From NCBI GenBank assembly GCA_027008345.1, contig JALTBU010000203.1:1-58425 (forward strand): 58,425 bases of DNA. Direction: 5' to 3'. Positions 19,087-56,471 of the stretch are shown in pieces (within the stretch, counting starts at the first letter, position 1; every line of letters starts with the position of its first letter). Source of the stretch: Nautiliaceae bacterium. GTDB taxonomy: Bacteria; Campylobacterota; Campylobacteria; Campylobacterales; Nautiliaceae. The notes under the pieces were generated by a model, which was not told where the DNA came from, did not search any database, and worked only from the letters and a program-made list of their open reading frames with translations. A program made the translations under genes and the position numbers.

Positions 19087-20823
19087 TTGAGTCTTGCGAA
19101 AAAAAAACCTGAAAAAACAAACGAAATCTTTGACAAAGTACATAAAAACATAGATGAGAGTATTGATTTAATAAAAGATTATCTGAGTTTAGAACAATAT
19201 AAAAAAACAAAATTTTTAAAGCATTCGAGTTTTTGTTTAAACTCTTTAATTGAAGAAATTTTACATGAACTTGAAAATGAAATAAATAAAAAAAATATTT
19301 CAGTCCATTATAGTGTTACCGAAGAAAATTTAATTATAAAAACAAACAAAGAATGGCTTAAAAAAGCACTTTTTAACATAATACACAATGCCGTAAAATA
19401 CAATAAACAAAATGGTCATCTTTTTATAAATATTGAATATACAAAAAATGGCTATCTTCTAATAGTTAAAGATACAGGCATAGGAATAAGTAAAAAAGAC
19501 AAAGAAAAAATTTTCGAAAGATATTATACCAAGGATAAAGATGGCAGCGGAATCGGGCTCAATTTTTCAAAGACGGTAATAGAATCCCTTGGAGGCAAAA
19601 TAAAATTTGATTCAGTCTTCAATAAAGGCACGGTATTTTATATATATCTTCCAAAAATAAGTAAAAAAATTAAGCTGAAAATGTTAGCTTCAGCATTAGC
19701 AGGATTTTTTATTGTCTCTTTTATAACAATAGATTATTTTTATTGTTTAATTCCTCAAAAAGTGCAAATAAAAATTTCCGGAAATATTAAAATAATAAAA
19801 TTTGAAAACGGGATTGTTGCAAAAGCCAATAAAAATGACGAAATCAAAATAATAGCTTATAAAAACATATTTAATACTAAAACAAGAAACAAATTAATCT
19901 TACAAAAATCAGATATTGAAATAGCTACAAATGGCAATAAGATTAAAGTTATAACTCCAAATACTTCTTTTAGCAATTTAGGAACAAAGTTTGAAACAGT
20001 GGCAAAAGATAAAACTGCAATCAGTGTATTTGACGGAAAAATAAAAAATAAAAGAACAGTAGTAAATACAGATGAAGGGCTTATAGTTTCAAAAACCATA
20101 CAAAAAGTTCCTTTGCCCCAAAAAATATCTTATCTAAAAATACAAAACAAACCAAAAACTATAATAAGATGGTCAAGTCCTTATAAATATTTTAAAATTT
20201 TAATATCAAAAGATCGATCTTTTTCAAATCCTCCTATTTATGGCTTTTATACTGCTAACAAAATAATTTCTCCTAGTTTAAACGATGGAATATGGTATAT
20301 CAATATCAAAGCAAAACATAACGACCTTTATTCAATACCAGTTGTTAAAAAATTTATATCTTTAAATAATTATTATAAAGCTTTAAATTATTATAAAAAC
20401 AATAATATTCAAGAAGCTCTTAAATATATCGAAAAAAGCGTCTCAACAATAAACCATATATCTCCGTTGCCATATTATTTATATGCTAAAATACTTTTTA
20501 AATTAAAAAATTACAAAAAGTCATTAAAATATATAAAAGAAGGAGAAAAAGTGGGGCAAAAAGAAAAAATAAAATTATTAAAAGCGAAAATATTTTATTT
20601 AAAAGGAAAATATAAAAAAGTTATAGAAATTCTAAAAAACCCTTCAAATGAAGAAGAAAAATTACTTGTGGCAAAAGCATTTTATAAATTGGGTAAATAT
20701 AAAATTGCCAACAAATATTTATACAGGATACTTGAAATAAATCCTGATAATAAAGAAGCAAAAAAATTTTTAACATTTCCAAAAGGTTTAAAAAAGCAAG
20801 GATTTTCAAATGCATTTAATTGA
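19087..20823 (+). CDS. atypical sensor histidine kinase: N-terminal kinase core, one TM helix, extracytoplasmic FecR-like plus TPR region
   Basis: The HATPase_c boxes are present: N box NIIHNAVKYNKQNG, G1 VKDTGIGIS, F box IFERYY, G2 GSGIGLNFS. A TM helix follows (LASALAGFFIVSFITIDYFYCLI), then a FecR-like stretch (TPNTSFSNLGTKFETVAKDKTAISVFDGKIK), then TPR-like repeats. The H-box FFHDLKNKL lies in frame upstream of the called start, so the true 5' end is probably near 19003-19030 (see findings). Confidence 0.8.
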   Translation: MSLAKKKPEKTNEIFDKVHKNIDESIDLIKDYLSLEQYKKTKFLKHSSFCLNSLIEEILHELENEINKKNISVHYSVTEENLIIKTNKEWLKKALFNIIHNAVKYNKQNGHLFINIEYTKNGYLLIVKDTGIGISKKDKEKIFERYYTKDKDGSGIGLNFSKTVIESLGGKIKFDSVFNKGTVFYIYLPKISKKIKLKMLASALAGFFIVSFITIDYFYCLIPQKVQIKISGNIKIIKFENGIVAKANKNDEIKIIAYKNIFNTKTRNKLILQKSDIEIATNGNKIKVITPNTSFSNLGTKFETVAKDKTAISVFDGKIKNKRTVVNTDEGLIVSKTIQKVPLPQKISYLKIQNKPKTIIRWSSPYKYFKILISKDRSFSNPPIYGFYTANKIISPSLNDGIWYINIKAKHNDLYSIPVVKKFISLNNYYKALNYYKNNNIQEALKYIEKSVSTINHISPLPYYLYAKILFKLKNYKKSLKYIKEGEKVGQKEKIKLLKAKIFYLKGKYKKVIEILKNPSNEEEKLLVAKAFYKLGKYKIANKYLYRILEINPDNKEAKKFLTFPKGLKKQGFSNAFN

Positions 20824-22126
20824 TATTATAAATAAATCGGATATCGCTTTAATAGAAGGTGCAAGTAAACTTGGAAAATTAACATTCGCACTTTATGCAT
20901 ATTCTCAAAACGAAAAAATAGAAAAAGTAACAATTTTATCCTCAATCCAGAAAAAATTGATGCAAAAAAGAATCCACTCAATTCAAAATTTAAATGATGA
21001 AAATATTAATAAGTTATTGAAAAATATTGAATTTTTATGCTTGAAAGAAAATTGGCTTGAAATAAAATCTTCTTATGGATTTGATTTCATTTATGAAGAC
21101 ATTGAAAGAATAGTACAAAATACTAAATGTGATGCAATAATACTTCACAGGCCTGATTTGATGTTTAGTAATAGCGAATACGATCTTGCAAGATTGTTTC
21201 TTGAAAAATTTATTGAAATTGCAAACAATTATGGGAAAAAAACATTTATTACAAGTGATATGAATCATTTTATCACAGAATTTTTAGAAAATTACACAGA
21301 TATTTCTATGCAGATGAAAAAAAAAGACAATATAAGAAAAATAATAATAAAACATTCTTTGTATCCCGTAACATCAAATTTATACGATTTCATTTTTAAA
21401 AACAACAAATTTGAACTTATAAATGAAAAAGAAAATTCTAATATTGATATTGTAACATCCAAAAATGATATGTTAGTTATTTCACAAGATGAAAGATTCA
21501 AAAAAATACATTCCTATATTTTTAGTAAATATTTTAATATAGAATTTGCATCAAACCTCAGCGAGGTTATAAAAAAAATAGAAAACAAACCTGAAATAAT
21601 AATTTATCAAGACCAAGAAACGATTCCTGAATTTGATATCTGTAATACAGTAAAAAATATATCACCTCATTCAAATATTATTTTTATACTAAATAAAGAC
21701 TATATAAGAGCAGAAGATAAAATGGATGCTATACAATCAAAATGTTATGAAGTTTTTAGCAGAAACTTTAATCTTGAAGAATATATTTTAACCATAGAAA
21801 AAATAAATCAAAATTTTTTCTATTCAAATAAACTCAAACTTTTACCTCCCCAAAAAATTGCAACTAATTATGAAAATTTCTGTAAAGCCATTAAATCACT
21901 TTATAATGAAAGAATATTTTTCTCAGTAGTAGAATATTCTGAATTTAAAGATGAAATAATAAGCAGACTAAGAACCCATGATATTATTTATAAAAAAGAC
22001 GAGCTTATTTATCTTTGTCTTGTAAATGTAACCAAAGAGATGTTTGAAAGTAATTTAAAAGAAAAATTAGAATTAACAGATAAATACCATTTTATTGAAG
22101 CCATAGAGTGGGACGGTAAATGCTAA
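20810..22126 (+). CDS. RecA/KaiC-like (degenerate P-loop) plus receiver-like plus GGDEF-remnant protein; BcsE-like architecture (hypothesis)
   Basis: 438 aa. Residues 17-24 read GASKLGKL, which is GxxxxGK followed by Leu rather than Ser/Thr. Residues 221-330 or so have a receiver-like alternation (MLVISQDE...PEIIIYQDQE...IIFILNKD...EVFSRNF). The C-terminus reads FFSVVEYSEFKDEIISRLRTHDIIYKKDELIYLCLV. It overlaps both neighbouring genes. Confidence 0.6.
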   Translation: MHLIDIINKSDIALIEGASKLGKLTFALYAYSQNEKIEKVTILSSIQKKLMQKRIHSIQNLNDENINKLLKNIEFLCLKENWLEIKSSYGFDFIYEDIERIVQNTKCDAIILHRPDLMFSNSEYDLARLFLEKFIEIANNYGKKTFITSDMNHFITEFLENYTDISMQMKKKDNIRKIIIKHSLYPVTSNLYDFIFKNNKFELINEKENSNIDIVTSKNDMLVISQDERFKKIHSYIFSKYFNIEFASNLSEVIKKIENKPEIIIYQDQETIPEFDICNTVKNISPHSNIIFILNKDYIRAEDKMDAIQSKCYEVFSRNFNLEEYILTIEKINQNFFYSNKLKLLPPQKIATNYENFCKAIKSLYNERIFFSVVEYSEFKDEIISRLRTHDIIYKKDELIYLCLVNVTKEMFESNLKEKLELTDKYHFIEAIEWDGKC

Positions 22127-25100
22127 AAAAAGCATTGATTTTTTTTATGTTTTCAATATTAATTTTAGCCGATACATTGGAAATTGATGCTAACCAACTT
22201 GAAAAAGAGATATTAAAAAACCCAAATGATATATTAAACCGTTTAATACTTGCAAAATATTATGAAAATCACAAAAATTATAAAAAAGCTTTAATTTTTA
22301 TAAACCAGATTTTGGAAAAAGATCCAAAAAATAAAAAGGCATTGTTATTAAAAAAAGAGATATTATCTTTCCAAAATACACAAAAACTTAATGAAAAATA
22401 CGGAAATCTCGATAAATATATAAACAATCTTTATGAAAAAGAAAAATATAAAGAAATACTTTCTTTTTATACAAAGTATAAACCTTTATTAAAACCAAAA
22501 ACCCTTATTAAAATAGCAAGAATCGCAATGTGGGAAGGAGATTACGATCTTTCTTTAAAGATATTAAATTCTTTTAAAGAAAATAATTTGGATGTATTGG
22601 AAATAAAAGCATATGATTATTTCTTCAAAGGCGATTATATTAAAGCAAACAGATTATTTAAAATCCTTTATAATGCAACCGGACAAAAAGATTATGGAAT
22701 AAAACTTATTGAGACATATATTCGGCTCGGCGATGCATTAAGTGCAAAAAAAGTGCTTTATTCTTTGAAATACAAACTTTCAAAACAAGAATACCAAAAA
22801 TATTTTAATTTAATTGAAAAAAAACTTTTTTCTTACATAAATATATTAAAAAAGCAATATACAAAAAATCCTACATATAAAAATTTAAAAAAATTTATCA
22901 TTGCATTATATGATTTACAACCTGATGAAGCAATAGAAATTGTAAAAAATTATCTCAAAAACAACCCTGAAAATTTCAAAGCCAAAATTTTACTGGCTAA
23001 ATTATATATATGGAAAGGAGAAACACAAAAAGCAACAAAAATTTTGGATACTTTTACAGATACAGACAATTATCAGGCAAAACTGCTTTATGGAAAAATT
23101 CTTGCTTGGAATGGAATGTATAAAAAAGCCAAAATATTTTTAATGGATGTATATCAAAATGGAAATACAAAACAAAAATATGAAGCATTAAAAATGCTCG
23201 GATTTATAGAAATGTGGCAAAATCATAAAGAAAATGCAAAAAAAATTTTTGAAAAACTTTATAAAATAAATCCAAAAGATGAAGAAGTAAAAGAAGCACT
23301 TATGATTTTAAAAGGAAAAATAAAACCACTTATTATCAAATATGAAAAACTTCTAAAAAAATATCCCAATAATATGGATTATGTACTGAAATTAGCTGAT
23401 TTATATTATATGCTCCCAAACTATGAAAAAGCGGCAAAATATTATGAAATCTATCTTCAACACAATCCTGATAAAATAGAAATATATAAAACGCTTGGAG
23501 ATATTTATCTTGAATTAAAAAAATATTATAAAGGTTTTTCAGACTGGGAATATTATGCAGCTATAAAAAACACCCCTGACGCATATCTTGAATTAGCAAA
23601 AAGATATTACTGGAATGGTTTTATGAAAGAATCATTAGATATTTTAAATAAACTCATAAATAAATATCCAAATTACAAACAGGCAATAGAACTAAAAGCT
23701 AAAATTTTAAAAATAAATCCAAGATATCTTAATTATAATTATGAAACGGCTATTGAAAAATATTTCAACAACAGAGCCCAAAAACTATTAATTTATGGAG
23801 ACAGAAGTTATTTTGCAGGTTTTTATAAGACTGCCCAAAATTATTATAAAGATTATCTTTTTATAAATCCAGATGACGCAAATGTAAGGGAAAAATATGC
23901 TTATACACTTGAATTTACCGGTAATTATTCGACTGCGGCAGGAGAGTTTTATAATCTGTTTTGGTATAAAAAAAACCCAATTATAGAATATCATTATGCA
24001 TATTGTTTGCAAAAATCAGGGAAACTAAAAGAAGCTAAAAAAATATATGAAAAATTACTTAACGAAGTACCAAAACCACTTCCGGAAAAATTAAAAAAAT
24101 TTATTTATAACTGGAAAAAAGCATGGGAAAGTATGAATTTTGAAAAATATGCTTCATTTTATGACAACAAAATAAAAAACAACATTTATTGGAGATTAAA
24201 AAAACAAAATATTTTTAAAAAAGCAGGTTTTATAAGCGTAGGGATATATAACCCTATTCTACTTCAAAAAAAAAGAAATATTTATAAAATAAAATTTTAT
24301 CAGGTATATGCATCTCAAATCAAAAAAGATAAAGGATATAAAACTTTATGGATAAAATGCAATAAAGACAAATGCCTCATAATAAAAGAAAAATGGTCTC
24401 CAGGTAAATTCAGACCAGATAATCCTGAAAACTCTCTTCTTATCTTGATAAGAGAAAATTTACAAGAAATTGACACTCCAAAGACTATTATAAAAAACAA
24501 TGAAAATATTACCTATGAAAATATACCGTCAAAAAAACAAAATAAAAACAGCATTCAAGACGAAAACAACCTTATACAGCCAAATGACTTTATGCCTTTG
24601 AATAAAATTTTAAAAAAAAAAGAAACTAAAATAACACTTGCTGAAAAAAACATTACAAGAGAAACAAACACTTCTTTAATCAAAGAAAATTTAAATATTG
24701 AAAAATTTAAGATAGTAAAAGTTACAAAAAAAAACGCAATAACCAAAGAAATTAAAAAAAGACCACCTAATTATTTTTTAATTTCATTATATCATTTTCA
24801 TGATAATCAAAAAACTCACTATAATCACATCGAGGCAAAATATTTAAAAAATTTTGGAAGTTTTGACGCCGGCATATTTGTGCGATTTTTTGAAATAAAA
24901 CAAGATTTTAAAAAAGATTCAGGAAACATAACAGCCGGTATTATTAGATACAGAGGATATGAAATAACGGCAGGTATCGATAATGCAAAAAAAAGTGATT
25001 TGTATTTAAATATAAAATCTGAATATAAACACCATAATATAAATATTTTATATGAAAACCTTGTATATTCAAGAAAAACTATATGCTCTTTAATTCATAA

Positions 25101-25575
25101 AAGATTAAAACTTGAAGCAAGCAGATACAAACAGCTTAACAACATAAGAGGTCTTTGGTATTCTATCGCAGGAGAATATATTGATGATGGAAATTTAGTT
25201 TTTACTCCCCAAATTGATTATGATTTTTATAATAATAAAATATTTAATTCGCCATATGCGTTTTTTTTCTCAGGATGGTATCAGTTTAATTCAAAACAGA
25301 CAAATTGTTACTATTCACCTGATAAAACTGATTCTAATCTTGTAGGTATTAAATTTTATCCTAAAAACAAATTTGCAGATATAATGTTTAAAGGAGGGAT
25401 TGGTTATAGCATTTGGGATAAAGCATTTTTATATAAGTTAGGATTTAATGTAACCAAAAATATAAAATTATTCAATATAAATGCAAAGTGTGAATATGCA
25501 AACACTTCACCTGTTAACGCTCCTAATAATTATAAAAGTTATGAGTGTTATTTAAATATGGGAAAAACATGGTAA
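22120..25575 (+). CDS. outer-membrane exopolysaccharide export protein: periplasmic TPR scaffold plus C-terminal beta-barrel (PgaA/BcsC/PelB-like architecture)
   Basis: 1151 aa with a signal peptide (MLKKALIFFMFSILILA). About 650 aa of TPR repeats come first, then a small globular insert and a low-complexity Asn/Lys linker. The last 270 aa or so have alternating-hydrophobic strands and end in ...YLNMGKTW, a terminal aromatic as in OM barrels. Confidence 0.75.
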   Translation: MLKKALIFFMFSILILADTLEIDANQLEKEILKNPNDILNRLILAKYYENHKNYKKALIFINQILEKDPKNKKALLLKKEILSFQNTQKLNEKYGNLDKYINNLYEKEKYKEILSFYTKYKPLLKPKTLIKIARIAMWEGDYDLSLKILNSFKENNLDVLEIKAYDYFFKGDYIKANRLFKILYNATGQKDYGIKLIETYIRLGDALSAKKVLYSLKYKLSKQEYQKYFNLIEKKLFSYINILKKQYTKNPTYKNLKKFIIALYDLQPDEAIEIVKNYLKNNPENFKAKILLAKLYIWKGETQKATKILDTFTDTDNYQAKLLYGKILAWNGMYKKAKIFLMDVYQNGNTKQKYEALKMLGFIEMWQNHKENAKKIFEKLYKINPKDEEVKEALMILKGKIKPLIIKYEKLLKKYPNNMDYVLKLADLYYMLPNYEKAAKYYEIYLQHNPDKIEIYKTLGDIYLELKKYYKGFSDWEYYAAIKNTPDAYLELAKRYYWNGFMKESLDILNKLINKYPNYKQAIELKAKILKINPRYLNYNYETAIEKYFNNRAQKLLIYGDRSYFAGFYKTAQNYYKDYLFINPDDANVREKYAYTLEFTGNYSTAAGEFYNLFWYKKNPIIEYHYAYCLQKSGKLKEAKKIYEKLLNEVPKPLPEKLKKFIYNWKKAWESMNFEKYASFYDNKIKNNIYWRLKKQNIFKKAGFISVGIYNPILLQKKRNIYKIKFYQVYASQIKKDKGYKTLWIKCNKDKCLIIKEKWSPGKFRPDNPENSLLILIRENLQEIDTPKTIIKNNENITYENIPSKKQNKNSIQDENNLIQPNDFMPLNKILKKKETKITLAEKNITRETNTSLIKENLNIEKFKIVKVTKKNAITKEIKKRPPNYFLISLYHFHDNQKTHYNHIEAKYLKNFGSFDAGIFVRFFEIKQDFKKDSGNITAGIIRYRGYEITAGIDNAKKSDLYLNIKSEYKHHNINILYENLVYSRKTICSLIHKRLKLEASRYKQLNNIRGLWYSIAGEYIDDGNLVFTPQIDYDFYNNKIFNSPYAFFFSGWYQFNSKQTNCYYSPDKTDSNLVGIKFYPKNKFADIMFKGGIGYSIWDKAFLYKLGFNVTKNIKLFNINAKCEYANTSPVNAPNNYKSYECYLNMGKTW

Positions 25576-48482: not shown

Positions 48483-49811
48483 TTATGCGTATTTATATGT
48501 AAAATCAATAACAAGTTCATCTTCTTCATTTGGAACATTTGATATTTTTTGAAAATTATCCTGTTTTTGATGTTTTCTGTTTTGGTCGTTTGAATTAAAA
48601 TTCATATTAATATTTGTAAATCCCATATTTACAAGCGAATTTTTAAGCTCATTTTGTTGTGTTGTTAAAAAATTTATTGTTGTCGGGTTATTTGTATTTA
48701 TCTGGACATTAAGATTTTCCCCCTGATGTCTTATAACTACTTCTACTTTTCCAAGTTCTTTTGGATGAAGTTCAAGTGAAAGCTTGGTAAGAGGAGGCTT
48801 ATAATTTTCAACAGCTTCTTTTAATGATGAGACAAAAGTTCTTATATTTTGTTTTGCCTGAATTATTTTATGTTTTAACTCTGTATTAATTCCACCATTA
48901 AAAATCTGATTATTTTCATTATGCTTATGTTTTTTTAAAGGTTGTGTTTTTGTTTTTAAATTTACATTTATTATATTTTCATCACTGTTTTTACTAATAT
49001 TTTCGTGTAAAAGTCTATTTAAATCAATTTTATTGTTATTTAAATTTTGAACTTTTTCATTTTTAGAAATTGAATGTATATTTTTAAAACTTAAAATTTC
49101 GCGTTTTTTTATATAAGTTTTGTTATCAGATTTAAAGATTTCTTTTTTTATCAAATTAACTGCTTGTAAATTTTCATTATTTTCTTCTTTAACAACAATT
49201 TTTGTAAGATTCAAACCGAATTTTTTAGTTAAAGTAATCAAATCTTTTATATTTGAAACATTTTTAAACTCTTTTGTATTTACAAGAACTTGAATATGAT
49301 TTTCTGTTTTTGCTTTTGAGATTAAAATATGCTTTATTTCTTTTACAATTTCATTTTGCAAATTTAAAGGTATATGTTTTGTTTCTTCTTCAAATTTTTT
49401 ATCATCCATTATTAATTTTTCTAAAAAAGAAACTTTTTGATTTTTCCCATTATCATTTATATAATTTGTTTTTGGAGAAACTTTAACAATTCTTTTATTC
49501 TCTTTAATAAAAGATTTTTTTATAAAAAAAGAATCTGACTTCTTATTTTTATTGCTATGCTGTTCGTAATTCAAAGTTTGAATTTTAAGTCTCGGATTTT
49601 TTATTTCTATTTTTAATTTTTTAATACCAAACTTTTCAAACAGTTTGTTTTTTTCATTCTCTGAAAGATTTGAAGCTGTAATTATTTTTTTAATAATATT
49701 TTTATCATCAATATTTTTTAAAAGCTCAAATAAAAAATCACCACTTTTAAATGTTGTTTTTTTATTATCAAGCAGGTTTAAAATATTATCAAACAATAGA
49801 GGCTGAATCAT
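48483..49811 (-). CDS. fliK: flagellar hook-length control protein FliK
   Basis: 442 aa. The N-terminal two-thirds are low-complexity and Asn/Lys-rich. The C-terminal Flg_hook-type domain reads LSLELHPKELGKVEVVIRHQGENLNVQINTNNPTTINFLTTQQNELKNSLVNMGF. Its position upstream of flgD matches Campylobacter. Confidence 0.8.
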   Translation of the reverse strand: MIQPLLFDNILNLLDNKKTTFKSGDFLFELLKNIDDKNIIKKIITASNLSENEKNKLFEKFGIKKLKIEIKNPRLKIQTLNYEQHSNKNKKSDSFFIKKSFIKENKRIVKVSPKTNYINDNGKNQKVSFLEKLIMDDKKFEEETKHIPLNLQNEIVKEIKHILISKAKTENHIQVLVNTKEFKNVSNIKDLITLTKKFGLNLTKIVVKEENNENLQAVNLIKKEIFKSDNKTYIKKREILSFKNIHSISKNEKVQNLNNNKIDLNRLLHENISKNSDENIINVNLKTKTQPLKKHKHNENNQIFNGGINTELKHKIIQAKQNIRTFVSSLKEAVENYKPPLTKLSLELHPKELGKVEVVIRHQGENLNVQINTNNPTTINFLTTQQNELKNSLVNMGFTNINMNFNSNDQNRKHQKQDNFQKISNVPNEEDELVIDFTYKYA

Positions 49812-52114: not shown

Positions 52115-52837
52115 TTATATCAAATTAAAAGGATCATCAGAATTTCTCACGACAACCTCAATATCAATTCTGTCTTTCAAAATATTTTCCATACATTCAC
52201 TGAAATATTTTTCACTGTGATAATGTGTAATGTCAATAAGATTCATTCCTCTAACTTTTGCATCCATTGCTTCATGGTATTTAATATCTCCTGTCATAAA
52301 ACAATCAGCCCTTACAAAATCAAGAAGGCTCATTCCAGCCCCTGTCGTGATTGCCACTCTATTTATTTTGTTTTTTGCTTTTACAACTCTTATATTATCT
52401 AATTTTATTTTTTCTTTTACATACGCGACAAGCTCATCAAAATTCATATCAACATCTGCATAAAAAATAAAATCTTCTGAAAATCCTTTAAATCCCAAAA
52501 TTTCTTTTGCAAAATATTCATTAAGATGAGTTTTATCAAAATTTGTATGCATAGCAATATGAGAGATGTTTTTTTTAATCATTTTTAAAAGAAGTTTTGT
52601 TGAAAATCTGTTTGGAATAACTTTTTTAATAGATTTAAAAATCAGAGGATGATGTGTGATTATAAGAGAATTTTCATCAACCTCATCAATAAGTTTTTCA
52701 TCTAAATCAATAGATAAATATATTTTTTTAATTTCACTATTATAATCCCCTAAATTAAGCCCGCTGTTATCCCACTCTTCTTGTAAATTAAAAGGTGAAA
52801 TTTCATTCAAAACATCATAAACTGTTCTTAATTTCAT
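52115..52837 (-). CDS. Nif3-family dinuclear-metal-centre protein
   Basis: 240 aa. [30 protein letters not shown] and [14 protein letters not shown] are Nif3/YbgI motifs. Confidence 0.88.
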
Positions 52838-53684
52838 TATTTGCCTTTATAGTCTCTACATATGTTTCAGCCACACCTTTTGCAAGTTCACGGATTTTTA
52901 AAATATAGTTTTGTCTTTCTGTTTGAGAAATTGCTTTTCTTGCATCAAGCACATTAAATACATGACTTGCCATAATTGTATAATCATATGCCGGAAGCGG
53001 AAGTTTTGCTTCAAGACATTTTTTAGCTTCGTTTTGACAATCTTCAAACCATCTAAAAAGCATATCCACACTTGCCACTTCGAAGTTATATTTTGAAAAT
53101 TCATATTCGCTTTCTTTATGCATATCTCCATAAGTCGTAGTTTCATTCCATTTTATATCATACACACTATCTACACCTTGAAGATACATAGCAAGTCTTT
53201 CTGTCCCATATGTAATTTCCACAGGAACTGGAAAAGTTTTAAGCCCACCAACCTGTTGAAAATAAGTAAACTGCGTAACTTCCATACCATCAAGCCATAC
53301 TTCCCATCCAAGTCCCCATGCTCCAAGTGTAGGAGACTCCCAGTTGTCTTCTACAAATCTTATGTCATGCTCTTTTAAATTAAGCCCTAAATATTCAAGG
53401 CTTTCAAGATACATCTCCTGAATATTATCAGGGCTTGGTTTCATAATAACCTGAAACTGATAATAACTCCCAAGTCTATTTGGATTTTCTCCATATCTTC
53501 CATCAGTAGGTCTTCTGCTTGGCGCCACATACGCCACATTCCACTCCCTGTCTTCAAGGCTCCTAAGTAAAGTCGCCGGATGAAATGTACCAGCCCCGCT
53601 TGGAAAATCATAAGGCATTACAATATTACAGCCTTTATTTTTCCAAAATTCTTGAAGTTTCAAAAGTAAATCACTAAAATACAT
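52815..53684 (-). CDS. glyQ: glycine--tRNA ligase alpha subunit
   Basis: 289 aa. [29 protein letters not shown] and [24 protein letters not shown] are highly conserved GlyQ sequence. Confidence 0.97.
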
Positions 53685-53694
53685 TTATTCTCCT

Positions 53695-54237
53695 TTATAT
53701 TACTTTATCTTTAATACTTAAATATTTCTTTTTAAACCACTCAATATCATTTGTTTTAACATCTTTTATCATATTTTGTTCTTTAAAATATTCTAAACCA
53801 AATTGAATTGTATTTGAACAAATCCTTCTTCGCCATTTTGGCTTATCATTATAAACAATTCCTACATATAAAGTATATTCATCAAATTTTACATTACATC
53901 TTTTTGAAATTTCTTTTAAAACATTTATACTATCAAATATTTTTTTCTTTATTTCATTATTGTCAATATCGCTACACTTTTGATTTTTAAATTCAATTAA
54001 ATAGAGTTTTTTATTTTTTTCATCAAACAATATTGTATCAACACTACTAGGAATAGGATGATTAAAATATTTTTTAACAAAAAAATCAAAATCTAATCTT
54101 TGAGATTGACATTGGCAAAGATATATTTTTTCTTTGTTAATATCGTTATTATCTGCCGATATATTTTTTAAACTATTAAAACAATTTATTTTAAAATTTT
54201 TACATATATTTTTAATGCAATAAAAAATCTCAGCCAT
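53695..54237 (-). CDS. small Cys-rich protein with a PD-(D/E)xK nuclease-like motif; partner of the upstream ATPase
   Basis: 180 aa. SSVDTILFDEKNKKLYLIEFKNQK gives D67 ... E82-x-K84 in a beta-strand-like context, the classic restriction-endonuclease-fold spacing. The N-terminal cysteines are C7, C12, C19, C41 and C43. It overlaps the ATPase gene by 8 nt. Confidence 0.6.
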   Translation of the reverse strand: MAEIFYCIKNICKNFKINCFNSLKNISADNNDINKEKIYLCQCQSQRLDFDFFVKKYFNHPIPSSVDTILFDEKNKKLYLIEFKNQKCSDIDNNEIKKKIFDSINVLKEISKRCNVKFDEYTLYVGIVYNDKPKWRRRICSNTIQFGLEYFKEQNMIKDVKTNDIEWFKKKYLSIKDKVI

Positions 54238-55273
54238 TTTTTCCCATTATTTCATCATCTAATTTATCAAATTCATCAAATGGGGCACTTAATTTTTCAA
54301 AAATTTTTTCCAAAGTTAAAGCATTACTATCATTTATTTTAAAAATTTTATTATTTTCTGCTAAATAAAAATTTGCATTTTTAACTTTATAATAATCTGT
54401 ATATTTTTTTAAAGCTTCAATAATATATGGAGAATGAGAAGTTATTAAAATTTTAATATTTTCTTTAACTAATTTTACTATTAATTTTGCATACTCAATC
54501 TGCCATTTTGGATGAAGATGAACCTCAGGTTCGTCTATCAATAACACATATTTTTTATCTAAAAACCTGTTTTGATTAAGAAGTTGAATAACTCCAAAAG
54601 ATTTAATACCGCTTGCAGTATTAAACATTTTAATTTTTTCAGCTCTGTTATTTATATTTTTAAAATAACTGATTTCTCCGTTTTTTTCAACAACAAATTT
54701 ACCATTAATTAAATTTGAAATCATATTATCAATGAATTTTTTAATTTTTATCCTTAAAAATGTGTTTTGTGTTGTTAATTTATAATATAAATCCCAATAT
54801 GTATAAGGATATTTTATGTTAAAATCTAATCCTAAATCAAATTTTTTATTTTCTCTCATTTTTGATACACTATTAAAAAAATCTATAAAATCAAATATCA
54901 AAGGACTTTGAATAAATGTTGCATCGAAAAATCTTTCTTTTGCATCTATTTTTCTATAAAACTTTTTTACATAATTATTATCTTTCACTTCAACATCAAT
55001 TAAAATATCATTTTTTGAATTAAAAAATTTAATTTGACCATCCTTTGAAACATTAGCATCAAAAACATAATTAAACCTTATTGCCAATATCTCTTTTGCT
55101 CTTTTATCATTAACTTGTGAAATTTTAGAAATATTATCAGCTTTAACTAAGCTAAATAATGTTTTCAAAATCGTACTTTTCCCTGTATCATTTTCTCCTG
55201 CTATAACAGTAAGGCCGTCAAGTTTTACATCAGCTTCTTTTATTGCACCTATGTTTTTCAAATAGAGTCTCAT
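54230..55273 (-). CDS. ABC-type/SMC-head-like ATPase (AAA_15/AAA_21-like)
   Basis: 347 aa. The N-terminal IKEADVKLDGLTVIAGENDTGKSTILKTLF holds Walker A. ASGIKS is signature-like. YVLLIDEPEVHLHPKWQ holds Walker B and the D-loop. ILITSHSPYIIE holds the H-loop. Confidence 0.8.
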   Translation of the reverse strand: MRLYLKNIGAIKEADVKLDGLTVIAGENDTGKSTILKTLFSLVKADNISKISQVNDKRAKEILAIRFNYVFDANVSKDGQIKFFNSKNDILIDVEVKDNNYVKKFYRKIDAKERFFDATFIQSPLIFDFIDFFNSVSKMRENKKFDLGLDFNIKYPYTYWDLYYKLTTQNTFLRIKIKKFIDNMISNLINGKFVVEKNGEISYFKNINNRAEKIKMFNTASGIKSFGVIQLLNQNRFLDKKYVLLIDEPEVHLHPKWQIEYAKLIVKLVKENIKILITSHSPYIIEALKKYTDYYKVKNANFYLAENNKIFKINDSNALTLEKIFEKLSAPFDEFDKLDDEIMGKNG

Positions 55274-56133
55274 TTTATTCCCTTAAATAACATATATTCA
55301 TTTTTCTGCGCCCCGCTTGCTCTTGCGACCACATCGCATTTTACTTTAAAAAGATAAAAAACTTCTCTTTGACATTCATTATAAAGACATTCAAAATTTC
55401 CCATTCCTTTGCTTATAACCAAATCGGAATTATAAAATATATCTTTGCTTTGTTTATTGGCTTTATTTAAACAAAATCCGGGAGTATCAACACCGCTATC
55501 AATCACATCGGCAAGATTGAAAATTTCAAGTCCTTTTAAATCATCAATTGTCACATCATTTATAATAGGTTTTCCTCTAACAATATAATAAATTTTCACA
55601 TCAGGATTATATTCTTTTATTGTTTCAATAAGCAGTTCATCAAATACGTTTTCCCCTGCATTATCGGCTAAATAAGCAATCTTTTTTGCATTTAATATTT
55701 TGTTTTTCAATAAAAGATAATCATCTTTGAAAAATTTCATTTCAAATATTCTTTTAATTTCTTTTTGCAAATCATATTCCTGATTGACACCAAGGTCTAT
55801 CACATTCCCTGCAACTGCAATTTTACATGCATCATAAAGTCTATCTTTTGATTTAGACAGTCTTTTTTTAAGTATTGGCTTAAATTTAAGTGCCTCTTTA
55901 ATTGCTTCTTTTTTCTCTTTTTCAAACAAATCTCTTTTTTTAACTATTTCAGCCACACTTTCATATACATCACTTGCGATGATTGGAGGTTCAAAAGAGA
56001 GGTCATAAAATGAAAGTTTTTTTGCACCTTCTCTTAAAACCTTAGATGCAGTCTCTTCATCAAGATTTAATCTTTCAGTAATATTAAAAACCTGATTATA
56101 AATACACAAATAACATTCTTTGCTTATTTTCAT
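55270..56133 (-). CDS. DUF89-family (damage-control phosphatase-like) protein
   Basis: 287 aa. Cys-containing N-terminus (SKECYLCIYNQ), LADNAGENVFDELL and DLVISKGMGNFECL fit the DUF89/ARMT1-like pattern. Confidence 0.75.
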   Translation of the reverse strand: MKISKECYLCIYNQVFNITERLNLDEETASKVLREGAKKLSFYDLSFEPPIIASDVYESVAEIVKKRDLFEKEKKEAIKEALKFKPILKKRLSKSKDRLYDACKIAVAGNVIDLGVNQEYDLQKEIKRIFEMKFFKDDYLLLKNKILNAKKIAYLADNAGENVFDELLIETIKEYNPDVKIYYIVRGKPIINDVTIDDLKGLEIFNLADVIDSGVDTPGFCLNKANKQSKDIFYNSDLVISKGMGNFECLYNECQREVFYLFKVKCDVVARASGAQKNEYMLFKGIK

Positions 56134-56369: not shown

Positions 56370-56393
56370 ATCTCCTCCTTCTATTTTAGTAAA

Positions 56394-56471
56394 TGGGTAG
56401 ATGGGTATAAGAGTATATGGGTAAAATTTATATCAAAAATTCACTCATTTACCCATCAACTCATTCACTCA
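56394..56471. repeat. inverted pair of octamer arrays (4 units in the G-rich orientation, a 14-nt spacer, 4 units in the C-rich orientation)
   Basis: tgggtaga tgggtata agagtata tgggtaaa (56394..56425), then atttatatcaaaaa, then ttcactca tttaccca tcaactca ttcactca (56440..56471). tgggtaaa and tttaccca are exact complements. The last unit overlaps the stop of the 154-aa gene. Confidence 0.85.

Follow-up and report, generated by a model that had tools for sequence, protein, structure and literature searches.

A divergent gene pair for an ABC ATPase and a putative PD-(D/E)xK nuclease is an accessory cassette upstream of glyQ in Nautiliaceae

Introduction

HEC-02 consists of an ABC ATPase and a NERD-like PD-(D/E)xK protein that carries a (D/E/Q)xK motif; its defence activity in Escherichia coli depends on both genes (Payne et al., bioRxiv 10.1101/2024.01.29.577857). 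PD-T4-4 combines a P-loop nucleoside triphosphatase (NTPase) with a PD-(D/E)XK nuclease and was found in an integrative and conjugative element (ICE)-like element of E. coli (Vassallo et al. 2022, PMC9519451). It forms higher-order complexes, and complex formation was reported as general for the nuclease-NTPase group that includes PD-T4-4 (Ragucci et al., bioRxiv 10.1101/2025.07.10.664194). Here we describe a gene pair for a 347-aa ABC-type ATPase and a 180-aa putative nuclease in a stretch of 58,425 nucleotides (nt) from a Nautiliaceae bacterium (contig JALTBU010000203.1 of GenBank assembly GCA_027008345.1), in the following called the window. An original prediction, made from the letters of this stretch, had proposed an accessory pair of a sensor ATPase and a minimal PD-(D/E)xK effector, and had been unable to match this combination to a named system. 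Our computational analysis supported the first proposal by the class of the ATPase, the invariant residues of the D...ExK core, the constant adjacency of the two genes and the presence of empty sites. The second point needed correction: the combination is already named. Among described systems the pair comes closest to HEC-02 and PD-T4-4, which are also the best PADLOC matches of the ATPase.

Results

The ATPase gene and its product

The ATPase gene (54230-55273, minus strand) was assigned to an HEC-02A/PD-T4-4_A/PtuA-like type by its open reading frame (ORF), by hidden Markov models (HMMs), by an AlphaFold2 (AF2) model and by Foldseek. Its stop codon overlaps by 8 nt with the start of the small putative nuclease gene (53695-54237, minus strand), so that the two genes are translationally coupled at 54230-54237 (minus strand). 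At the left edge of the insertion the ATPase start shares an ATGA with the stop of an ARMT1/DUF89 gene (55270-55273, minus strand). The right edge is a 10-nt spacer with the Shine-Dalgarno sequence of glyQ (53685-53694, minus strand). The gene order is ARMT1, ATPase, nuclease, glyQ. The positions and sizes of the ORFs and all three junctions agreed with the original prediction.

The translation contains a Walker A motif GENDTGKST (residues 26-34, including K32; 55172-55198), a signature-like ASGIKS (residues 220-225; 54599-54616), a Walker B motif with D-loop LLIDEPEVHLHP (residues 244-255; 54509-54544) and an H-loop TSHSP (residues 278-282; 54428-54442), all on the minus strand. These motifs had been recognized before, and they were conserved in an alignment of 46 ATPase homologues. 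Invariant residues were G26, N28, D29, G31, K32, S33 and T34 of Walker A, G222 and K224 of the signature, D247, E248, P249, E250, H252, L253, H254 and P255 of the Walker B/D-loop, and H280, S281 and P282 of the H-loop.

In Pfam the ATPase matched AAA_21 (3.8e-17) and AAA_15 (4e-16), and more weakly SMC_N and ABC_tran. The top PADLOC match was HEC-02A (PDLC04214, 1.4e-30, 104.7 bits), with residues 3-305 aligned to positions 5-302 of the 338-position profile, which is essentially full length. PD-T4-4_A came second (4.7e-30), followed by PDC-M47A and NsnB and by many PtuA, AriA, Old and GajA models; the E values for the AriA, GajA, Old and NsnB models were between 1e-15 and 1e-24. All NCBIfam matches were far under their cut-offs (PtuA 47.5 bits, with a cut-off of 500). 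The AF2 model had a mean predicted local distance difference test score (pLDDT) of 91.6 and a predicted template modelling score (pTM) of 0.90. Foldseek returned 498 PDB matches at E<=0.001 for this model. The best were Septu PtuA (E 4.4e-11, probability 1.0), a retron-associated PtuA, SMC heads, Rad50 and GajA. No C-terminal extension follows the ATPase domain, the protein being complete at residue 347, and the model lacks a coiled-coil insert of the SMC/Rad50 type. We concluded that the 347-aa protein is a PtuA/SMC-head-type ABC ATPase.

The small protein is a putative nuclease

The predicted catalytic beta-hairpin of the small protein, SSVDTILFDEKNKKLYLIEFKNQK, comprises residues 64-87 (53977-54048, minus strand) and includes D67 ... 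E82-x-K84, the pattern on which the original prediction had been based. A word-indexed search revealed 18 close relatives with 57-99% identity, one of them named Lebetimonas. When 1.84 billion cluster representatives were searched with a profile, 444 matched at E<=0.001 and 68 at E<=1e-10, so that the family comprises at least 444 clusters at 50% identity. Nearly all full-length matches have 160-215 aa. Among 124 diverse family members, D67, E82, F83 and K99 were invariant, and S27, D29, F50, D51, K84 and N85 were conserved in at least 90%. A D...ExK pattern by itself is weak evidence, but its conservation across 124 homologues makes the core more than a chance occurrence. The five N-terminal cysteines which had also been pointed out are present at positions 7, 12, 19, 41 and 43, with further cysteines at 88, 114 and 140; however, the N-terminal ones are kept only within the close clade and are not a feature of the family.

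The AF2 model of the small protein (pLDDT 81, pTM 0.82) has an alpha-beta-beta-alpha-beta core. D67 begins the strand 68-72 and E82-x-K84 ends the strand 77-84; a helix with D51 (residues 50-57) lies ahead of the hairpin and a helix with K99 (residues 93-113) behind it. Such a layout is the canonical core of the restriction-endonuclease fold in the PD-(D/E)xK superfamily. The leading Foldseek matches of the model were weak and were PD-(D/E)xK enzymes: N.BspD6I was the best (E 0.12, probability 0.84, TM 0.38), and arenavirus and phenuivirus cap-snatching endonucleases, SduA, BstEII, XPF/Hef and N-termini of bunyavirus L proteins were also among them. A search of PDB sequences with profile A2 of the small protein yielded nothing. 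The ATP-grasp protein PylC, which was the sole match of profile A3 among the PDB sequences, was dismissed as spurious.

We also scanned the 124 family members one by one against PADLOC and Pfam. Weak PADLOC matches were obtained to seven HEC-02B models (12, 7, 5, 5, 3, 2 and 1 members, best 3.4e-7), to PDC-M29B (9 members), to Cas4 and to REase_II. Weak Pfam matches were to L_protein_N (6 members), NERD (5), SduA_C (3) and RE_TdeIII. Most of these weak matches point to the same fold and, among the proteins that have it, to HEC-02B/NERD. Conservation and the structure model together support the assignment of the 180-aa protein as a putative minimal PD-(D/E)xK nuclease.

Comparison with described systems

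Like HEC-02, the pair has an ATPase gene followed by an adjacent, co-directional gene for a small nuclease, and HEC-02A is the best PADLOC match of the ATPase. The lengths also agree: the profiles have 338 (A) and 184 (B) positions, the window proteins 347 and 180 aa. Some members of the small-protein family weakly match HEC-02B models and Pfam NERD, as described above. In contrast to HEC-02, the window nuclease itself matches neither HEC-02B nor NERD; its link to them is therefore transitive, and homology is suggested at the family level only. The window ATPase reaches only about 105 bits with HEC-02A and is tied with PD-T4-4_A. Furthermore, HEC-02 is the Hma-embedded candidate 2, whereas the window pair lies in a housekeeping operon and not inside an Hma system.

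With PD-T4-4 the pair shares the combination of a P-loop NTPase and a PD-(D/E)XK nuclease as well as the second-best ATPase match, but this match mainly involves the C-terminal half of the longer, 460-position PD-T4-4_A profile. PD-T4-4_B was matched in PADLOC neither by the window protein nor by the 124 family members, the relatives or the plasmid partners described below. Septu and the retron PtuAB modules resemble the pair in that PtuA is the best structural match and a separate nuclease is encoded downstream. In Septu this partner is the HNH protein PtuB, while the window partner has no HNH match in Pfam or PADLOC. PARIS (AriA/AriB), Gabija/OLD and Menshen (NsnB) share the class of the ABC-ATPase sensor. 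PARIS and Gabija/OLD differ by their TOPRIM effector; Pfam and PADLOC detected no TOPRIM domain in either protein of the pair, and none is encoded within or next to it. From these comparisons we would place the pair in the class of ABC ATPases with a separate PD-(D/E)xK nuclease, as a divergent member that has not been catalogued so far. It is HEC-02-like and at most a candidate for HEC-02 proper.

PADLOC model PDLC04146, which is labelled HEC-02B and has 344 positions, matched every ATPase tested (1e-13 to 1e-22) and not the nucleases. Despite the "B" in its label it appears to describe ATPases, which could mislead automated calls.

The two genes occur together

Checking the co-occurrence of the two families had been recommended with the original prediction. 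We found an ATPase homologue directly upstream of the nuclease gene and co-directional with it in 25/25 intact loci (loci are designated L001, L002 and so on). Among the first 17 loci gathered, an ATPase homologue was immediately upstream on the same strand in all 17, the copy in L012 being fragmented. The same layout was present in L019-L023, which were reached via ATPase homologues, and overlapping or abutting genes recurred in related loci. Three plasmids also carry the pair: the "hypothetical proteins" encoded downstream of the ATPase matched the family HMM (Acinetobacter 2e-19; Klebsiella 3.7e-14; Bacillus cereus 1.5e-4). The plasmid copies were found via the ATPase alone, and the family HMM then confirmed them. 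The Klebsiella plasmid is mobilizable and has a size of 5.9 kb. In total the pair was seen in Campylobacterota, Spirochaetota, Chloroflexota (Flexilinea), Bacillota and on plasmids of Pseudomonadota.

The identities of the two components to those of the window did not always agree. The nuclease of L003, an unrelated locus, is 70% identical to that of the window and its ATPase just 46%. In Caminibacter (L021), where the pair occupies the same ARMT1/glyQ site, the ATPase is about 57-58% identical and the nuclease 35%. Due to these discordant values the components should have partly different histories. They suggest a partner exchange between ATPases and nucleases, which is indicative only, as it is based on identities and on unsupported neighbour-joining trees.

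The pair is an accessory insertion between ARMT1 and glyQ

We compared the site upstream of glyQ in related genomes. The ARMT1/glyQ site is filled in L019/L020 (ATPase 86% identical to the window), L021 (Caminibacter sp., identity as given above) and L001/L002 (51%). In four other Nautiliaceae relatives, which had been picked solely for their long contigs, ARMT1 directly abuts glyQ with nothing between: L024, L025, Nautilia sp. PV-1 and Lebetimonas natsushimae, with ARMT1 proteins 80%, 74%, 63% and 62% identical to that of the window. Since these four sites are empty, the pair is not universally conserved at this position, as core genes would be. When a neighbour-joining tree was built from four flanking proteins, loci with filled and with empty sites were intermixed, and the filled L001 grouped with the empty Nautilia PV-1 with 100% bootstrap. 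Such interleaved states require at least three gains or losses. Two decayed copies were also found. In L018 (P0019, 8001-8549), between msrB and a PPIase (cyclophilin) gene, an in-frame deletion has fused an N-terminal part of the ATPase (about 125 residues) to a C-terminal part of the nuclease (about 55 residues). Fragments are present in L012 at a rho/murI site which carries an intact pair in L009. The pair is accessory and not part of the core genome.

As had been noted by eye, the pair is more A+T-rich than its surroundings. The small gene has the lowest G+C content (0.193) of the 48 window genes ranked and the ATPase gene the third lowest (0.224), with a mean of 0.300 and a standard deviation of 0.049. 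The divergence of the pair within Nautiliaceae roughly tracks that of the flanking genes and is about equal to that of ARMT1, so that the low G+C content need not mean a recent arrival; we rejected it as proof of recent transfer for this reason. An old resident with repeated precise loss, or the replacement of alleles via the conserved flanks, would fit the pattern best.

The right edge of the cassette, AAGGAGAATAAATG, resembles the left edge, AAGGGAATAAAATG, and a single AAGGAGAATGAATG in the empty site of L024. The edges thus share similar strings of a Shine-Dalgarno sequence plus ATG, with one copy in the empty site. Precise deletion could proceed through these strings, or they may be nothing more than ribosome-binding sites. 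A target-site duplication was not adopted as explanation for the similarity of about 14 nt, because it may reflect two ribosome-binding sites.

Genomic contexts in other genomes

Most loci are co-directional insertions in housekeeping operons with occasional conflict-system neighbours, and the pair occupies at least ten different conserved-gene junctions. In the Sulfurovum-type loci L004, L005, L006 and L010 it lies between purE and glyQ or between Grx (glutaredoxin gene) and glyQ. Other junctions are mraY/murD, rho/murI, msrB/PPIase and the position after carAB (carB). In L007 the pair follows guaA in a run of four ABC-ATPase genes. It was further seen between HEPN_LA2681 and dnaX, between nifN and a toxin-antitoxin gene, and, at other loci, next to a Dam methyltransferase gene or a YoeB toxin-antitoxin pair.

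The position directly upstream of glyQ is common to Nautiliaceae (window, L001, L002, L019-L021) and Sulfurovum-type genomes, with a varying upstream neighbour (ARMT1, purE or Grx). Sulfuricurvum L008 differs in that its glyQ lies on the opposite strand, at a distance of about 2 kb. Linkage to glyQ could stem from common ancestry, from a functional connection or from the use of this region as an anchor for recombination.

Further ATPase genes accompany the pair at some loci. In a Campylobacterales contig (L007, 4242-9387), guaA is followed by four consecutive ABC-ATPase paralogues. Behind one of these, of 359 aa, a different protein of 168 aa is encoded that has a D...EEK-like hairpin, FVDYILDLDDKYLFIEEKS, and matched neither the family HMM nor PADLOC. 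The two genes may form another ATPase/nuclease pair, related to the first and in tandem with it. In L014 (5908-6909, Flexilinea) and L011 (8432-9766, Spirochaetales) a further ATPase gene of the AAA_15/AAA_21/SMC_N type comes directly after the pair. ORFs of about 1060 and 395 aa upstream of the pair in L014/L015 were considered as type I restriction subunits; this was rejected, since they are carB and carA.

Surroundings of the pair in the window

The upstream neighbour ARMT1/DUF89 (55270-56133; Pfam ARMT1-like 1.2e-65) is accompanied on its side by genes for glutaredoxin, DUF3972, purE and peptidase U32. Downstream, glyQ (52815-53684; Pfam 4.8e-144) starts 10 nt past the small ORF and is followed on its side by genes for Nif3, a coiled-coil zinc-ribbon protein and waaA. 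The statement that no integrase, repeats or tRNA flank the pair was borne out: a tRNA search found none in the window, a repeat search no convincing flanking repeats around the pair, and the neighbouring genes that were read included no integrase. A promoter and terminator scan, which is uninformative in such A+T-rich DNA, gave no minus-strand terminator within the block. The DUF3972 and glutaredoxin genes are separated by 95 nt, and this gap is filled by an imperfect inverted repeat (56388-56469). Its two arms of 27 nt are 81% complementary, with 28 nt between them, and the repeat may be a regulatory hairpin or attenuator within the operon.

Other window genes are also low in G+C. At 19087-25575 a 578-aa histidine-kinase/TPR protein, a 438-aa ORF and a 1151-aa TPR protein are encoded with 0.235-0.244. 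These low-G+C genes at 19-25.6 kb were considered as restriction-modification genes, which was rejected because they encode histidine-kinase and TPR proteins. At 48483-49811 lies the gene for a 442-aa Lys/Asn-rich protein (G+C 0.215). At the corresponding position L024 encodes a protein with a Flg_hook domain, probably a hook-length protein. The ATPase/nuclease pair is therefore not the sole A+T-rich coding DNA of the window.

Discussion

We consider it likely that the pair is an accessory two-gene conflict module, in the first place one against phages or plasmids. By analogy to PtuA, AriA and SMC heads, the 347-aa ATPase would dimerise or oligomerise through its ATP-sandwich heads. It would bind the 180-aa nuclease and serve as sensor and gate, and the nuclease would be licensed by a cue from the infection, such as an altered ATP level, a phage protein or a structure in foreign DNA. 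A metal site of D67, E82 and K84, probably aided by D51 and K99, would then cut nucleic acid, by which either the invader or the infected cell would be stopped. No promoter is evident for the pair itself, which would be read through from the housekeeping operon. As a precise cassette of two ORFs it would be gained and lost probably by homologous recombination through the conserved flanks.

Several results weigh against a defence module of this kind. The pair is mostly found amid housekeeping genes and not in classic defence islands, and it may be an old resident of Nautiliaceae. The small protein had no match in Pfam (NERD included), PADLOC, NCBIfam and PHROG and none to HEC-02B even at E<=1, and Foldseek gave no match of its model at E<=0.001. 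A bridge to HEC-02B via the three plasmid partners and the L021/L022 proteins was not obtained, as none of them matched an HEC-02B model, NERD or any other catalogued model. ATPase scores of about 100 bits are tied between HEC-02A and PD-T4-4_A, and the subfamily assignment is therefore loose. No phage link was found either, and tblastn with the small protein against phage and plasmid collections gave no match at E<=0.01.

The pair might instead be a selfish addiction or stabilisation unit, in which the nuclease is a toxin restrained by the ATPase and which is kept because its loss is harmful or because it hitch-hikes in essential operons, and not for protection against phages. Pfam describes AAA_21 as "putative AbiEii toxin, type IV TA system" (TA, toxin-antitoxin), RelE/ParE or YoeB toxin-antitoxin genes adjoin the pair in L029, L003 and L022, and tight co-directional embedding between essential genes is seen in many genomes. 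The precise empty sites and the two decayed copies, however, show a pair that is readily lost, and the closest characterised relatives act in phage defence. We regard addiction as unlikely, although it overlaps with abortive-infection defence and is not cleanly separable from a conflict module. That the pair serves housekeeping genome maintenance, as an SMC/Rad50/RecF-like ATPase with a nuclease for repair or chromosome processing that is co-expressed with glyQ, appears very improbable to us. It is missing at the same site in Nautilia sp. PV-1, L. natsushimae and two closer relatives, its spread over phyla and plasmids is patchy, and decayed copies exist. The lack of an SMC/Rad50-type coiled-coil insert, the very low G+C content and the apparent partner exchange also argue against such a role. 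This is set against a fold like that of SMC heads and Rad50, the embedding in an operon with translational coupling, the recurrence directly upstream of glyQ behind three different upstream neighbours in Nautiliaceae and Sulfurovum-type loci, and a divergence close to that of ARMT1.

A homing-like cassette was also considered, in which the PD-(D/E)xK protein would cut empty junctions and the pair would be copied in. The occupation of at least ten conserved-gene junctions (such as ARMT1/glyQ, purE/glyQ, mraY/murD and rho/murI), boundaries at the exact edges of the two ORFs, and the lack of integrase, tRNA and repeats at the window locus would be expected from it. But the junctions share only a Shine-Dalgarno/ATG-like similarity which function alone would impose, natural transformation with homologous flanks accounts for the pattern just as well, and compact genomes leave few other tolerated insertion sites. 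We know of no homing system with an ABC-ATPase partner, and we judge this explanation to be extremely unlikely.

Returning to the conflict module, its target may be considered separately. PrrC and RloC are related ABC-ATPase systems that cleave tRNA. PARIS and OLD are likewise reported to cleave tRNA. Because the remote similarities of the small protein include RNA endonucleases of bunyaviruses that act in cap-snatching, it is conceivable, if improbable, that it defines a distinct, uncatalogued effector family which targets RNA (tRNA or mRNA) and not DNA. With such a target, the position upstream of glyQ would be either a functional tie to tRNA charging or a spreading strategy. The latter would mean that a promoter-less cassette is moved between lineages via recombination through an ultra-conserved essential gene.

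If the pair is active, it would be a divergent branch of the ABC-ATPase/PD-(D/E)xK systems with at least 444 unannotated clusters which are mostly invisible to PADLOC and Pfam. It would extend this class to the deep-branching, vent-associated Campylobacterota, in which, to our knowledge, few defence systems have been studied. No new mechanistic category is opened by it; what remains of particular interest are the unannotated effector family, the promoter-less embedding close to glyQ and the apparent swapping of partners. The filled and empty alleles at one junction provide a compact natural experiment, as does the apparent partner exchange; both are relevant to the movement and diversification of defence cassettes without an integrase in small genomes that recombine naturally.

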